A DNA stretch of 64,000 bases, taken from assembly GCF_058153355.1 (NCBI RefSeq), contig NZ_CM177019.1; one strand, given 5' to 3'. Shown one piece after another: positions 8,962-40,984 of this stretch. The translations under genes were made by a program, and so were the position numbers. Each line of letters begins with the position of its first letter. The stretch's first letter is position 1. Under the pieces are notes generated by a model, which had not been told where the DNA came from, searched no databases, and saw only the letters and a list, made by a program, of their open reading frames with translations.

Positions 8962-8990
8962 ATGCTCTGGATAAGGATTATCCAATTCTA

Positions 8991-9029
8991 AAAAAAAGCC
9001 CGAACGACTGTTCGGGCTTGTCTTCTTAT
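8991..9029. terminator. bidirectional terminator (ydbK / micC)
   Basis: hairpin aagcccgaacgactgttcgggctt flanked by A8 upstream and T-rich downstream. Confidence 0.7.
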
Positions 9030-9089
9030 ATGTTGGAAAATCAGTGGCAATGCAATGGCCCAACAGAAAATAAAATCTGTGACAATAAA
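8991..9089 (-). ncRNA. micC: MicC sRNA (OmpC-repressing, Hfq-dependent)
   Basis: reverse complement reads GTTATATGCCTTTATTGTCACAGATTTTATTTTCTGTTGGGCCATTGCATTGCCACTGATTTTCCAACATATAAGAAGACAAGCCCGAACAGTCGTTCGGGCTTTTTTTT; matches recalled MicC; between ydbK and ompN as in K-12. Confidence 0.8.
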
Positions 9090-9326
9090 GGCATATAACC
9101 CGCGCAGAATAACGTATAGCAAATTAAAAGTATAATTTTTATTTTGTATGTATTATCTTCGATACATTCACCAGACTTATTATCATTTCAGAGGAATTAT
9201 TTGATTAAGGTTTTACTTAAGGCGTAACAAATGATATTTATCGGCTAACTGAACTTCTCCTTTAGGATGTTTTCATTCCCCGAAATGGGGATAAAAGGCA
9301 AATAAAATAACTAAAGGATTTATTCA

Positions 9327-16060: not shown

Positions 16061-16181
16061 AAAAAAAGCCGACTCATCAAAGTCGGCGTCGTACGAATCA
16101 ATTGTGCTATGCAGTAATTCAAAAAAGGAAGTAAGACAATATGGAGCGCAACGCCCATCGCTTGACGTTGCATTCACCTGC
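16061..16181 (-). ncRNA. fnrS: FnrS sRNA (FNR-activated, anaerobic)
   Basis: reverse complement reads GCAGGTGAATGCAACGTCAAGCGATGGGCGTTGCGCTCCATATTGTCTTACTTCCTTTTTTGAATTACTGCATAGCACAATTGATTCGTACGACGCCGACTTTGATGAGTCGGCTTTTTTTT; zntB-dbpA intergenic location as in K-12. Confidence 0.85.
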
Positions 16182-19557: not shown

Positions 19558-19651
19558 ACCGGCGCAGAGGAGACCATGCCGGATTTAAGACGCGGATGCA
19601 CTGCTGTGTGTACTGTAGAGTCTGGCGGATGTCGACAGACTCTATTTTTTT
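19558..19651 (+). ncRNA. mcaS: McaS (IsrA) sRNA
   Basis: ACCGGCGCAGAGGAGACCATGCCGGATTTAAGACGCGGATGCACTGCTGTGTGTACTGTAGAGTCTGGCGGATGTCGACAGACTCTATTTTTTT; matches recalled McaS; abgR-smrA intergenic; intrinsic terminator. Confidence 0.8.
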
Positions 19652-19659
19652 ATGCAGTT

Positions 19660-29468: not shown

Positions 29469-29627
29469 CACCTCTTAGCTGGATTTACAATCAACGCATT
29501 GATTAGTTAGCTAATGTTGCTACTTCCTTCCCTGACTATTGATGATCTGAATGAATTGTCGCGGTAAAATAGCCCCGCCAGGGGTTTCCGGCATGACGAC
29601 AATTATCTGGAGGAGCCTGATAAAACA

Positions 29628-32654: not shown

Positions 32655-33554
32655 CTAAACAGCACCTTTATACTTCAGCCTATCTATAAATAATGAGAAT
32701 GCCGAGCCAGCATGTCGACGGTGTGGATAGTACAGGTGATAACCGGGTAAATCTGGTGTGAATTTATCCAAAACACGTATCAGTTTTTTTTCTTTAATAG
32801 CCCGCTCAACCTGATCATAAGGTAGATACGCCAATCCATGCCCATCAATTGCAGCATCAATGATCAGGTCTATCGTATTCAGTAAAAGCTGACCTTCCAT
32901 GCGAACACGAACTTCACGTCCACCGCGTATTAATCTCCAGCGATTTGCTGTACCCGATGTGGGAAGATACAAATTAATTGCCTGATGATCTATTAATTGT
33001 GACACTGACGTTGGAGCACTTCGACGAGAAAAATAATCCGGTGAGCCAACAATAGCCATTGGTATATCTGGCCCGATTCGAATGGCGATCATATCTTTAT
33101 CCATCTCCCCACCCAGACGGACGCCTGCATCAAAACGTTCAGAAACGACATCGGTCAAACCATAATCAATGGTAAGCTGGATATCAATTTCAGGATGCGA
33201 TTTCAGGAATGTGCGCATAGCTGGTAACAATATCGTTTTTGCTGCATGTTCTACAGTAGTAATACGTATTGTCCCGGATGGGCGGTTCTGCAGATCGCTC
33301 AGGGATGTCAGGGCAGAATCTATGTCATGCAACATAGGGCCAAGAACAGACAAAAGATGCTCGCCCGCTTCAGTGGGTACAACGCTGCGCGTGGTTCGCG
33401 TCAGAAGCCGCAATCCCAATCGTTCTTCTATACGGCGCACTATCTGGCTTAAAGCTGACTGCGCCATGCTCAGGCGGGCTGCTGCGCGAGTGAAGCTACG
33501 CTCCTCTGCAACGACGACAAACGCCATCAGATCAGCGATTTCTTCACGCTTCAT
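32655..33554 (-). CDS. pgrR: LysR-type regulator PgrR/YcjZ (299 aa)
   Basis: N-terminal LysR HTH (LMAFVVVAEERSFTRAAARLSMAQSALSQIVRRIEE); divergent from ycjY. Confidence 0.8.
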   Translation of the reverse strand: MKREEIADLMAFVVVAEERSFTRAAARLSMAQSALSQIVRRIEERLGLRLLTRTTRSVVPTEAGEHLLSVLGPMLHDIDSALTSLSDLQNRPSGTIRITTVEHAAKTILLPAMRTFLKSHPEIDIQLTIDYGLTDVVSERFDAGVRLGGEMDKDMIAIRIGPDIPMAIVGSPDYFSRRSAPTSVSQLIDHQAINLYLPTSGTANRWRLIRGGREVRVRMEGQLLLNTIDLIIDAAIDGHGLAYLPYDQVERAIKEKKLIRVLDKFTPDLPGYHLYYPHRRHAGSAFSLFIDRLKYKGAV

Positions 33555-33578
33555 TCAGTATCTCCATACAATCTATTA

Positions 33579-33621
33579 ATCATTTAAATGATAGGTCTAA
33601 TCATAATTTAGGGTCTAATCA
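33579..33621. promoter_or_regulatory. putative LysR-type operator in pgrR-ycjY divergent region
   Basis: perfect palindrome ATCATTTAAATGAT (T-N11-A type) followed by direct repeats GGTCTAATCA x2. Confidence 0.35.
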
Positions 33622-33679
33622 ACTTAATGATCAATATCTATAGTGATATCACCAACCGTCAAAACGAACCGACAACTCC

Positions 33680-34612
33680 ATGAGGAACGGAATGATGAAT
33701 AATAAAGTCAGCTTCACTAACAGCAATAATCCAACCATCTCTTTGTCTGCAGTGATCTATTTCCCTCCAAAATTTGATGAAACCCGTCAGTATCCGGCAA
33801 TTGTGGTATCTCACCCAGGTGGGGGCGTTAAAGAGCAAACGGCCGGAACCTATGCCGAAAAACTGGCGGAAAAGGGATTTGTCACTATTGCTTATGACGC
33901 ATCTTATCAAGGTGAAAGCGGCGGCGAGCCGCGTCAGTTAGAAAACCCATACATTCGTACTGAAGACGTCAGTGCCGTGATTGATTACCTGACAACGCTT
34001 TCTTATGTCGACAATACCCGAATTGGTGCGATGGGAATTTGTGCCGGTGCAGGATATACAGCCAATGCTGCAATTCAGGATCGCCGCATCAAGGCCATCG
34101 CTACCGTTAGTGCGGTCAATATTGGTTCGATGTTCCGTAATGGTTGGGAAAACAATGTGAAATCTATTGATGCCCTACCATACGTTGACGCGGGTTCAAA
34201 CGCCCGAACCAGCGATATTAGCAGCGGAGAATACGCCACTATGCCACTGGCACCAATGAAGGAGTCCGATGCGCCGAACGAAGAACTGCGTCAGGCCTGG
34301 GAGTATTACCACACCCCTCGCGCGCAGTATCCAACAGCACCGGGTTACGCTACTTTGCGCAGCCTTAACCAGATTATTACCTATGATGCTTACCATATGG
34401 CGGAAGTGTACCTGACTCAGCCGATACAGATTGTGGCGGGCAGCCAGGCAGGGAGCAAATGGATGAGTGACGACCTGTACGATCGAGCATCAAGCCAGGA
34501 TAAACGCTATCACATTGTTGAAGGCGCAAACCATATGGATCTTTATGACGGCAAAGTCTATGTGGCTGAATCAATTTCAGTATTAGCTCCGTTCTTTGAG
34601 GAAACTCTGTAA
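33680..34612 (+). CDS. ycjY: alpha/beta-hydrolase family protein YcjY (310 aa as ORF)
   Basis: hydrolase-fold protein; context matches ycjY; true start may be the internal MMNNK. Confidence 0.75.
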   Translation: MRNGMMNNKVSFTNSNNPTISLSAVIYFPPKFDETRQYPAIVVSHPGGGVKEQTAGTYAEKLAEKGFVTIAYDASYQGESGGEPRQLENPYIRTEDVSAVIDYLTTLSYVDNTRIGAMGICAGAGYTANAAIQDRRIKAIATVSAVNIGSMFRNGWENNVKSIDALPYVDAGSNARTSDISSGEYATMPLAPMKESDAPNEELRQAWEYYHTPRAQYPTAPGYATLRSLNQIITYDAYHMAEVYLTQPIQIVAGSQAGSKWMSDDLYDRASSQDKRYHIVEGANHMDLYDGKVYVAESISVLAPFFEETL

Positions 34613-35551
34613 TGAAACATATTCAAATCCGTAATAGTGATATGGCCTGGCATATTGCTGCCAATATTCAGTTTCCACCAAATTTTGATGAGTCAAAACA
34701 GTATCCGGCGATTATCAGCGTCCATCCTTTTGGCAGTTGTAAGGAGCAGACGTCTGGCAATATCTATGGCAAGGCATTGGCTGAAAAAGGCTATGTCGTT
34801 CTCGCTTATGACGCCAGTTTCCAGGGAGAATCTGGTGGGGAGCCTCGTTGGATAGAAGATCCGACACAGCGCGTAGAGGATATTAGCCGTGTTATCGATT
34901 ATGCAGTAACTCTGCCATATGTTGATGCTGAACGCATTGGCGTGCTGGGTGTGTGTGTGGGGGGGGGGGGGTGGCTATGCCATTAATGCCGCGCTGACAG
35001 AAAAACGAATTAAAGCTGTAGTGAGTATTACGGGTGTTAATATCGGGCGTCTTTTTCGGGAAGGTTTCAGCAATTACGATCCGATTGGCGCATTGAATGC
35101 AATGGCGTCGCAACGAACCAAAGAGGCTCGTGGTGGAGAATTACAGATCAACGAATTACTTCCCGCCAGCCTGGATGCAGCAAAAGCCCATGGACTGACC
35201 GAACGCGATGTTTATGAAGCAACTGACTACTATAAAACACCACGCGGGCAACAACCGGGAGGTGCGACAAAAATGTTGTTCTCACATGCACAGAAAACGC
35301 TGGCCTGGGATGCCTTCGCATTTACTGAAGTGTTACTGACTCAGCCGGTGATGGTAGTAGTTGGTGAAAAAGTCGGTGCCTTCGGTGCTTATCGTGATGG
35401 ACTGGAAGTCTATGGCCGGGCGATGGTTTCGCAGGATCGTCAGTTAGTTTCGTTACCCGATTTCTCACATTATGAACTGTATGACAAACCGGAAGCAGTT
35501 CAGGAGGCGCTGGAAAAAGTTATTCCTTTTTTCAACACCCATCTGGGATAA
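34612..35551 (+). pseudogene. ycjY-paralogous alpha/beta hydrolase, frameshifted at a (GT)4-G12 tract
   Basis: ORFs 34612..34986 and 34919..35551 are collinear with YcjY residue-by-residue (DAERIGVLGVCVGGG | YAINAALTEKRIKAVVSITGVNIG... versus YcjY DNTRIGAMGICAGAGYTANAAIQDRRIKAIATVSAVNIG); reading frame switches inside gtgtgtgtg + 12 G (34951..34971). Confidence 0.7.
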
Positions 35552-38929: not shown

Positions 38930-40984
38930 GTGATGACTATTATGGATGATAAACAAATTACGGTCTGGCTTAAACACAATTGCTGTTCAACGGACATTCC
39001 TGCCATTGCCGAGGCACTAACGAACCATGCAGAATGGCTTTTAGAGCTAGCGCCAGATCCTATTGAACAAGGTAGTTCATGTTTACCGCCGACAGCTGCA
39101 GCCGGTATTTTTCTTGGCGCAGCGGCGATGGTTCACTGCGGCGAGGCTAGTGGTGCAGAAACCTGGCTCGAAGCAGCCATTACTGATTACCATTTCTTTA
39201 ATCCAAATGGATATAGTTCATGGAGAGGCAGTACGCCTGTTTTTACAGCATTATCGCGTTACCCGGCATTAAGAATGGTGTTATTTAACGCCGCTTGCGC
39301 AATGGAAGACTGGAATAAAGCATCCGCTGTTCTTGAATCGCTTTTCCATGCCGGCGATGTCCCGGAAGATAACCCTGTCGCCCCAAATTTTACCCCTTAT
39401 GCGCTGAAAGCGTTTATCGCGGATTACCACCCGTTAGGGCCTGCTTATTATGATGAAACCTGGTTGCTGGCAAAACAAGCGTGGTTAATTAATGCGGGCG
39501 TTCTGGATGAGCGAACCTGTAATACCTGGAAGCAATATACCCGCCACTTGCGCCATTTGATCCACAATACACAGTTTGCCGATGCGCTCTCTTTTGTACG
39601 CAGTAAAAAAGAACCGTTAAATCATATCCATACCTACTCAGACTTTTATCTGTATGCGATTGGTTTATTTTCTTATACTAGTCAGCTAAATGAAGCGCTG
39701 ACCTGGATAAAACAGTTAATCCACAACAATGATGGTCATTTCTGTGATCTTTTCGTTTCAACTGGCAAAGAGCGCCGAATAAAGCCTGAACTTAGTACCT
39801 TGCTGAATAATCTCTTGCACAGCGCAGAGTTTCAGGCGTTGCAGGATAAATATCTCACCGTCGGACATGATGTTGTGTATTCTGGTCCCTTCATGTCACT
39901 TTATGAAAAGGTTCTTGGCGGTAAGTCCCGAAAGCGCTGCGCGATTAGTCGAAAATTAATCTCGCCCGGCGAAGCGGTTTATGAATATCGTCAGCTGGAT
40001 AGTGTGGAATATATTGCAGCAAAAGCGGCCTTTCAGACATCTGAGCTAAATAATATCGCCCACCGGCATCATAATGATAGTTATCAGTGGCATGAATTTG
40101 CTGCCCAATGGCCTCGTCGGGGTTCACTTTCTCACCCAGATATTGCCCGTTATTTGTTTGAGCGCCAGGAAGGAAAATGCTTTGATGCCGCAGAGTTTAT
40201 ACAACTGATTGCGGAACCGTTTGTCTTTCCGATGCGTTTCATATGGGTTGCCGGGTTGTCCTTTGAATTACATCAGTATCCGGATGCCTATTTCGTAAAT
40301 GACAATATGGCGGGTGAATTTGTTAATCTCTGCTGGATGGCTATGAAATGCGGACATGCTGGAGACATTTTCAAACAACTGGCCCACGAGCCGCATGACG
40401 TTGCTGACCCTATTTACGCCATGCTCGCCACGTTTGACCGCGCTGATTGCCGTAGCGCCGCCGCCGCGCACTTTGGACAACCGGAACTACCGGAAATAAT
40501 GGCACTGGCTTTCAGTTCGAGGTTATCGCTGGACAGCGTCCTTACCATCGCTGAGTTTGGTAAAAATCAGCCGCGATTTTCACATGCGCTAGCAACGGCC
40601 CTCCTGCGTTACAACCTGCACATCTACTCAAACTATATGCCGCAGGTTAACTGGTTCCTTCAGGGGCTGGAACACTATGCTTTGGCAAAAGGCGGTCAAC
40701 TTTTAAATTTCTTTGTGCATATTCCAGAACAAATTCCCGTTCTGGCGACCATGCTGGAACATGGCGTATTAGTGCGTGGGATCGGTGAAGGTGCCTACGA
40801 TGGTTATGATAATTCAGCAAATTCATTTCATCATGCCGCCGTGATGCACTGCCTCACGCACGCGCCGGAAAAAGTCCGCTACTGGATGGAAACACCCTGG
40901 ATTCAGAACTATTTAGTGAATGCGCCGCTGCGTCAAACGGCGCGCCATGTGGAAGCCTGGCATAAAAAGTTTGGCATCAAATGA
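38930..40984 (+). CDS. uncharacterised 684-aa soluble protein (no recognisable domain)
   Basis: single long ORF with GGAG SD before the second ATG; no Walker A, HTH, DDE or TM signature; Cys/His/Trp/Tyr-rich; lies between tpx and tyrR. Confidence 0.7.
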   Translation: MMTIMDDKQITVWLKHNCCSTDIPAIAEALTNHAEWLLELAPDPIEQGSSCLPPTAAAGIFLGAAAMVHCGEASGAETWLEAAITDYHFFNPNGYSSWRGSTPVFTALSRYPALRMVLFNAACAMEDWNKASAVLESLFHAGDVPEDNPVAPNFTPYALKAFIADYHPLGPAYYDETWLLAKQAWLINAGVLDERTCNTWKQYTRHLRHLIHNTQFADALSFVRSKKEPLNHIHTYSDFYLYAIGLFSYTSQLNEALTWIKQLIHNNDGHFCDLFVSTGKERRIKPELSTLLNNLLHSAEFQALQDKYLTVGHDVVYSGPFMSLYEKVLGGKSRKRCAISRKLISPGEAVYEYRQLDSVEYIAAKAAFQTSELNNIAHRHHNDSYQWHEFAAQWPRRGSLSHPDIARYLFERQEGKCFDAAEFIQLIAEPFVFPMRFIWVAGLSFELHQYPDAYFVNDNMAGEFVNLCWMAMKCGHAGDIFKQLAHEPHDVADPIYAMLATFDRADCRSAAAAHFGQPELPEIMALAFSSRLSLDSVLTIAEFGKNQPRFSHALATALLRYNLHIYSNYMPQVNWFLQGLEHYALAKGGQLLNFFVHIPEQIPVLATMLEHGVLVRGIGEGAYDGYDNSANSFHHAAVMHCLTHAPEKVRYWMETPWIQNYLVNAPLRQTARHVEAWHKKFGIK

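Follow-up and report, generated by a model that had tools for sequence, protein, structure and literature searches.

A conserved block in the divergent pgrR–ycjY spacer of Escherichia coli as the probable operator of the LysR-type regulator PgrR

PgrR of Escherichia coli is a LysR-type transcriptional regulator whose gene lies divergent from the alpha/beta hydrolase gene ycjY, and the primary paper on PgrR at the K-12 spacer between the two is said to be that of Shimada, Yamazaki and Ishihama in 2013 (Genes Cells 18:123). One classical divergent operator of the LysR family, with recognition and activation sites, is reportedly that of BenM and CatM at benA, with its sites 1, 2 and 3, the names attached to it being Bundy et al. 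in 2002 and Maddocks and Oyston in 2008. AphB of Vibrio cholerae and CrgA of Neisseria meningitidis bind dyads in divergent or upstream promoter regions, and their operators are odd-spaced dyads of the T-N11-A type. Here we describe the pgrR–ycjY spacer in a 64-kb stretch of an E. coli chromosome (the window, by which we mean the whole of the DNA analysed). A perfect palindrome and a pair of direct repeats lie there within a 70-bp block that is conserved across genera, and we think it probable that this block is both the shared control region of the two promoters and the operator of PgrR. The elements are these:

33555..33691, no strand assigned: divergent spacer between pgrR and ycjY, 137 bp
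33579..33592, no strand assigned: dyad 1, the perfect 14-bp palindrome ATCATTTAAATGAT, of the form ATCA-N6-TGAT, read directly and by script
33594..33603, plus strand: repeat copy 1, GGTCTAATCA, which is AAGTCCAATCA in most other genera
33612..33621, plus strand: repeat copy 2, the second exact copy of GGTCTAATCA
33600..33613, no strand assigned: candidate dyad 2, ATCA-N6-(T/A)GGG, with its centre at +21 bp relative to dyad 1; the last bases of repeat 1 form the left half, and the right half is degenerate
33618..33631, no strand assigned: dyad 3, ATCAACTTAATGAT, which copies the palindrome imperfectly and has its centre 39 bp downstream of that of dyad 1 (+39); the last bases of repeat 2 form the left half

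The nearest described system is the same locus in K-12, where RegulonDB and EcoCyc hold the ycjY/pgrR spacer as a PgrR binding region. The palindrome, the repeats, dyad 3 and a TATAGT hexamer further downstream are identical there, 33579-33631 of the window corresponding to 1391914-1391966 of K-12 NC_000913.3. Four bases of the spacer differ between K-12 and the window strain, all of them in the 8-bp gap between the repeats or outside the conserved block, and nothing biological separates the two. The layout is also like that of the BenM/CatM type. The regulator is divergent, the dyad closest to the regulator gene is strong and perfect and overlaps that gene's promoter, there is self-repression, and weaker dyads follow 21 bp and further downstream, with centres at about -65, -44 and -26 if TATAGT is the ycjY -10. 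Unlike that type, the PgrR spacer has the dyad ATCA-N6-TGAT (T-N10-A) rather than ATAC-N7-GTAT or T-N11-A, PgrR is documented only as a repressor and has no known ligand, and a longer direct-repeat unit, GTCYAATCA, is common to the weaker sites. Among solved structures in the PDB, the nearest relatives of PgrR after the uncharacterised regulator 3mz1 are AphB (3szp and 3t1b, 1e-30) and CrgA (3hhg, 7e-30). The likeness to these two is one of protein sequence, and the even T-N10-A dyad of the PgrR spacer stands against their odd-spaced dyads.

Both the palindrome and the repeats are real and non-random. A first-pass annotation of the window, made from the letters alone, had reported a perfect 14-bp palindrome in the divergent region followed by two direct copies of GGTCTAATCA spaced 8 bp apart, and both were found as described. 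Only three perfect palindromes of at least 14 bp occur in the 64 kb, ATCATTTAAATGAT among them, and none reaches 16 bp. The repeat unit occurs exactly twice in the window, with an 18-bp period, and the pair is the sole exact direct repeat of at least 10 bp with a spacing of 11–40 bp; elsewhere in the window, matches to the unit with at most one mismatch are found at chance level only. As a null model, the spacer was shuffled 20,000 times with its dinucleotides preserved. Of the shuffles, 245 (1.2%) contained a palindrome of at least 14 bp and 149 (0.75%) a direct repeat of at least 10 bp within 40 bp, whereas the two arose together in a single shuffle.

About its own axis the palindrome reads ATC-N8-GAT, that is, T-N10-A, one base under the canonical T-N11-A, so that the LysR T-N11-A architecture once ascribed to it does not fit. 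Asymmetric T-N11-A pairs are present at 12 of 125 spacer positions, which is the chance rate, and in an AT-rich spacer they carry no information. Dyad length variants have been reported for the LysR family; thus the T-N10-A spacing weakens the label of LysR operator, not the mechanism.

Alignment across genera shows a sharply bounded conserved footprint in the spacer. Scanning a genome collection with PgrR recovered the pgrR–ycjY pair in Citrobacter, Kluyvera, Pseudocitrobacter, Shimwellia, three Serratia and one metagenome-assembled genome, with PgrR 85–88% and YcjY 89–92% identical to the E. coli proteins. The divergent layout is retained in every orthologous locus examined whose flank extends to the hydrolase gene. 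Mean identities between E. coli and nine non-Escherichia orthologous spacers divide the region as follows:

33555-33574: pgrR leader, identity 0.21
33575..33644, no strand assigned: conserved regulatory block of 70 bp, holding all of the motifs, identity 0.88
33645-33679: remaining segment, identity 0.57

Within the block, identity is 0.99 for the palindrome, 0.98 for repeat 2, 0.78 for repeat 1 and 1.00 for TATAGT (33639-33644); at four-fold degenerate sites of pgrR and ycjY, 0.38 are identical. In repeat 1, GTC-AATCA is retained in most orthologues and the T at 33598 is specific to Escherichia. Across about five independent lineages, pairwise four-fold identity is 0.34–0.48, near saturation, as against 81–94% for the block. 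There are no indels in the 70 bp, both flanks have indels, and the dyad offsets of 0, +21 and +39 are kept. Among the 5220 E. coli genomes carrying the 47-bp core, 5114 have it with at most two mismatches. The block is under strong purifying selection, with fixed spacing. The cross-species comparison suggested at the outset as a check thus favours the motifs, which are conserved across genera where the flanking spacer is not.

The two secondary dyads bring the repeats into the same scheme as the palindrome. Besides the palindrome itself, only ATCAACTTAATGAT comes within three mismatches of it in the 64 kb. The exact form ATCA-N6-TGAT occurs four times in the window, twice within the spacer, and 0.75–1.7% of local shuffles yield one. 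At the +39 offset, nine of the ten other aligned spacers match seven or eight of the eight half-site bases. At +21 the match is six of eight in eight of those ten spacers and seven of eight in one; Serratia PL17 (ATCG...) falls below six, and the window strain itself has five of eight because position 33610 is A rather than T, giving AGGG instead of TGGG. On these grounds dyad 2 is put forward as a candidate PgrR sub-site. Since the +21 and +39 dyads begin at the ends of the repeats, the repeats are best read as the left half-sites of two secondary dyads, with a conserved GTC extension. The repeats are real but not free-standing: repeat 2 is the pgrR -35, carries TCTAAT, and opens dyad 3 with its ATCA. 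One further inverted repeat of this form, AATCAACGCATTGATT at 29489-29504 (6+6, fitting ATCA-N6-TGAT), lies in the divergent ynaJ–ynaI spacer, which is not a reported PgrR target.

Promoter elements are interleaved with the dyads throughout the block:

33612..33617, minus strand: pgrR -35, TAGACC, which is the six opening bases of repeat 2 read on the complementary strand
33588..33593, minus strand: pgrR -10, TATCAT, the palindrome right half plus one base, invariant across genera
33614..33619, plus strand: ycjY -10 candidate P1, TCTAAT, inside repeat 2, a prediction from the literature
33639..33644, plus strand: ycjY -10 candidate P2, TATAGT, invariant in 11 of 11 sequences (as CTATAGT), with its -35 position on the TAATCA of repeat 2

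We scanned for sigma-70 promoters as -35 and -10 hexamers with a 16–18 nt spacer and at least 9 of 12 matches. The minus-strand pair TAGACC-18-TATCAT, at 9/12, is conserved, and it is the only consensus-passing conserved promoter in the spacer. Shimada et al. 2014 (PMC3946193) predicted two sigma-70 promoters here, TAGACC-18-TATCAT for pgrR and ATGATA-19-TCTAAT for ycjY, so that the pgrR promoter was reached independently by scan and by literature. The start site predicted for it, at about 33581, is covered by the palindrome. The literature candidate for ycjY fails the scan, the distance from ATGATA to TCTAAT being 20 nt in both the window and K-12, not 19; its predicted +1 is at about 33626. 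The alternative, TAATCA-17-TATAGT, scores 8/12 and falls under the threshold as well; its predicted +1 is 33651, within an invariant CA at 33650-33651. As neither candidate passes, the ycjY promoter appears to be intrinsically weak. The supplementary tables of Cappable-seq (PMC4782308), ROSE (PMC10301672) and Kim 2012 list no ycjY or pgrR start site inside the spacer, and the only ycjY-assigned 5' end in Kim 2012 is weak and lies 667 nt upstream, inside pgrR. Two other scan matches, TTGACG-18-GATATT (minus strand) and TTCACG-18-TACAAT (plus strand), were rejected for want of conservation in their hexamers, which also read differently in K-12. An RNA element was likewise rejected: Rfam has no family in or near the spacer, and the candidate 5' untranslated region, 33645-33679, is poorly conserved.

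Binding of PgrR to the spacer in vitro and repression of its own promoter in vivo are published. PgrR has both the helix-turn-helix and the substrate-binding domain of a LysR-family regulator (Pfam HTH_1, PF00126, 1.6e-21, N-terminal; LysR_substrate, PF03466, 1.5e-35), and the minus-strand pgrR and plus-strand ycjY share the spacer in the divergent arrangement of a LysR operator. Genomic SELEX (systematic evolution of ligands by exponential enrichment) places ycjY/ycjZ among the targets of PgrR (YcjZ), with a curated regulon of ycjG, ycjXF-tyrR and ycjY-ymjDC-mpaA (PMC5934670). DNA affinity purification sequencing (DAP-seq) gives a 5632-fold signal for PgrR at the pgrR promoter, comparable to that of LacI at lacZYA, 4413 (PMC10505187 Supplementary Data 6). 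In the pooled promoter assay (PPTP-seq) of the same study, knock-down of pgrR raised pgrR promoter activity by 0.97 log2, and a strain with tunable PgrR bore out the negative autoregulation; for this promoter the authors refer to a known PgrR site. The ycjY promoter rose by 0.60 log2, which was not significant (PMC10505187). The only role on record for PgrR is repression, both of ycjY-ymjDC-mpaA and of its own gene, and the K-12 annotation is also that of a repressor. TATCAT and the predicted start of pgrR are overlapped by the palindrome, and we infer that the published autorepression runs through it. The initial suggestion of a recognition site plus an activation site for the adjacent regulator is supported in its first half, given the LysR domains and the SELEX and DAP-seq signals on the spacer; for a recorded repressor, "activation" can be kept as a positional label only.

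Taken as a model, the 70-bp block would work as follows. One PgrR dimer would occupy the palindrome, whose half-sites ATCA and TGAT are 10 bp apart centre to centre, and dyad 1 would be the primary, high-affinity site. Its occupancy would cover the pgrR -10 and the predicted start near 33581, leading to autorepression. The second dimer of a tetramer would bind a weaker dyad downstream, for which ATCA-N6-TGGG at +21 bp and ATCAACTTAATGAT at +39 bp are candidates; either has its left half in a GTCYAATCA repeat. By this second contact the pgrR -35 (TAGACC) would be covered together with the ycjY promoter, resulting in repression of ycjY. With TATAGT as the ycjY -10, the centres of the dyads would fall at about -65.5, -44.5 and -26.5 relative to the predicted +1, the classical LysR layout of recognition and activation sub-sites, with room for a ligand-dependent activating state. 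If instead TCTAAT is the -10, the palindrome would lie at about -40 from the predicted +1 and repression could be by simple occlusion.

Several observations weigh against this model. The dyad is T-N10-A and not the T-N11-A of the family. The right half of dyad 3 is moderately conserved (G33629 is present in four of nine genera), the dyad is poor in Serratia proteamaculans, and the right half of dyad 2 is degenerate. The conserved GTC 5' of each repeat is unexplained by an ATCA half-site. Around mpaA/ycjG and ycjX, which are also reported PgrR targets within the window, we found no palindrome-like site with at most three mismatches. Every position given relative to +1 is predicted, and published PgrR binding is placed at the resolution of the region, the base-pair contacts with the repeats being ones that we infer. 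Promoter function alone could also explain the conservation of repeat 2 and of the palindrome right half.

This last point is the basis of the main rival, which we consider rather unlikely: PgrR would recognise the palindrome alone, and the GGTCTAATCA copies would be conserved as core promoter (TAGACC, TCTAAT and the weak ycjY -35 TAATCA), the repetition being incidental. Scan and literature do place the pgrR -35 on repeat 2 and its -10 on the palindrome right half, repeat 2 is far better conserved than repeat 1, and the T that gives repeat 1 its TCTAAT is Escherichia-specific. Counter to this, repeat 1 has no plausible promoter role, yet most lineages retain its GTC-AATCA, and the distance is fixed. 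In addition, the ATCA of repeat 2 opens a second ATCA-N6-TGAT dyad that is statistically unusual, LysR-type tetramers normally contact two dyads, and the conserved stretch 33622-33638 corresponds to no promoter hexamer. That the motifs are functionless chance features of AT-rich intergenic DNA is scarcely credible. G+C is indeed lower in the first 125 bp of the spacer (32%) than in the window (50%), and short palindromes rich in AT abound (the window holds 53 perfect 10-mers), but palindrome and repeat coincided in just one shuffle, the motifs are near-invariant across lineages with saturated synonymous sites, and experimental PgrR binding to the spacer has been published; the conservation data already effectively refute this explanation.

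It is improbable that a different factor, whether UlaR, H-NS, Fur or the sigma-E RNA polymerase, occupies the repeats while PgrR binds only the palindrome. A sigma-E promoter has a GGAACTT-like -35 about 16 nt upstream of a TCTAA- or TCAAA-like -10, and GTCTAA, present twice in the block, resembles this -10. No AAC-containing, GGAACTT-like -35 lies at the sigma-E distance from either GTCTAA on either strand, and the AAC at 33621-33623 is not conserved; with no -35 found by reading the spacer, we rejected a sigma-E promoter. This leaves unexplained by sequence a sigma-E holoenzyme SELEX-chip peak of 17.2 at the ycjY/ycjZ spacer, among the stronger peaks recorded, where neighbouring entries have about 4–6, in a study whose authors call pgrR and ycjY RpoE-dependent (PMC5493296). 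The window strain has GTCAAA at 33658-33663, where K-12 has GTTAAA. For UlaR, knock-down raised the ycjY-ymjDC-mpaA promoter by 2.19 log2 in lysogeny broth (LB) and a DAP-seq peak of 57.5-fold was recorded; for H-NS, knock-down raised the ycjY promoter by 0.88 log2 (PMC10505187 Supplementary Data 6). SELEX for UlaR, on the other hand, shows only ula targets (PMC4797297), and we rejected UlaR as the repeat binder, as the ula operator region shares only chance-level 9-mers with the block. The best match to the 19-bp Fur consensus GATAATGATAATCATTATC is 13/19, at 33590-33608; Fur was rejected with nothing in its support, regulation of ycjY by Fur not being found in the literature examined. AT-rich DNA also commonly gives background signal in SELEX and DAP-seq. 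We therefore keep to the block as the probable PgrR operator and shared control region.

The flanking genes are as follows:

32655..33554, minus strand: pgrR (ycjZ), LysR-type transcriptional regulator of 299 aa, from the open reading frame (ORF), Pfam and the RefSeq annotation in strain N3 and K-12
33682-33687, plus strand: Shine-Dalgarno sequence of ycjY, GAGGAA, conserved
33692..34612, plus strand: ycjY, alpha/beta hydrolase of 306 aa, with the RefSeq and K-12 start

The segment 32340-34700 is matched in 5417 of 5426 complete E. coli genomes at 90–100% identity, and pgrR and ycjY (or an alpha/beta hydrolase) are annotated beneath these matches. The divergent setting had been read correctly, as the RefSeq and K-12 annotations bear out, K-12 having the same pgrR–ycjY pair as the window. 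The 125 bp first given for the region had counted to an ATG at 33680; the ycjY start is 33692 in RefSeq and K-12, which makes the spacer 137 bp. In Serratia proteamaculans the 33680 ATG is ATA, and GAGGAA and ATGATG are kept. The local order in E. coli strain N3 is ynaI, mppA and pgrR (the latter two on the minus strand), followed on the plus strand by two alpha/beta hydrolase genes, an SDR gene and mpaA.

Elsewhere in the window, the second alpha/beta hydrolase gene, downstream of ycjY (34612-35551), carries a 7-bp insertion relative to strain N3, GTGGGGG at 34957-34963. It splits the gene into two overlapping ORFs of 124 and 210 aa, and the gene is a frameshifted pseudogene in the window strain. 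Between tpx and tyrR, the segment 38800-41020 holds a plus-strand ORF of 684 aa (38930-40984) that is not in K-12. The segment is present in 32 of the 5426 complete E. coli genomes, in none at 99% identity or above, and is annotated there as a "hypothetical protein"; the product has no match in Pfam, NCBIfam or PADLOC, and the ORF is a rare accessory gene. Rfam matches at gathering level, as expected for this region of E. coli, are MicC (8982-9102, minus strand), FnrS (16064-16181, minus strand) and McaS (19558-19653, plus strand).

More distant relatives of PgrR retain parts of the same arrangement. Two regulators, one 65% identical (P0121, at locus L017) and the other 58% (L010), each stand divergent to a ycjY-like hydrolase pair, and both spacers keep ATCA-N6-TnAT directly beside the regulator start codon. 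At L010 a second dyad, the perfect 14-bp palindrome TTGTTAATTAACAA, lies about 36 bp away; L017 has only an imperfect AT-rich dyad at a smaller offset. To judge from these motifs, both would fit a two-dyad operator. An argument from operator co-variation at these loci was dropped, the operators being too diverged. Of two further homologues, P0123 comes from a 2.4-kb contig that is uninformative, and P0124, whose gene neighbourhood differs, is likely a paralogue. At L010 and L017 the dyad-1-like element and a -10-like hexamer on the regulator strand (TATTAT or TATAAG) abut the annotated ATG; the regulator mRNA may be leaderless there, or the start codon may be mis-called.

Looking across the genera, a unit of pgrR, ycjY, the second hydrolase gene and the SDR gene, with 85–92% protein identity, is found in Citrobacter, Kluyvera, Serratia and Shimwellia (loci L002–L013 and L017), and PgrR homologues are also named from Klebsiella, Raoultella, Enterobacter and Salmonella. 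Neither mppA nor mpaA adjoins the unit in the loci examined. E. coli plasmids carry six copies of the unit, and one copy in Klebsiella variicola is labelled plasmid-borne. The unit thus looks mobile, and its tie to the murein-peptide genes appears to be specific to Escherichia.

The original observation is real and functional, and its reading as a PgrR operator is right in spirit and wrong in detail. It is an ordinary regulatory site and in essence a known one, in the control region of a minor E. coli regulator that already has a name; at the level of the locus, literature and databases have the fact already, and beyond annotation it matters little. What is added here is a base-pair-level model, with one perfect ATCA-N6-TGAT and two weaker dyads that draw their left halves from the repeats, the correction to T-N10-A, and the interleaving of the pgrR promoter and both weak ycjY promoter candidates with the dyads. 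A more speculative possibility, one that we regard as doubtful, is that PgrR may be a ligand-responsive activator as well as a repressor. The GTCYAATCA repeats would then be alternative activation sub-sites at about -44 and -26, and an unknown effector would switch on the ycjY-hydrolase-SDR operon at the invariant TATAGT promoter. On the same tentative footing, the conserved and mobile unit would be pgrR, ycjY, the second hydrolase and the SDR gene, and the role in "peptidoglycan recycling" would be an Escherichia-specific addition and not ancestral. The movement of this unit between genera without the murein-peptide genes calls into question how tightly PgrR is bound to peptidoglycan recycling.

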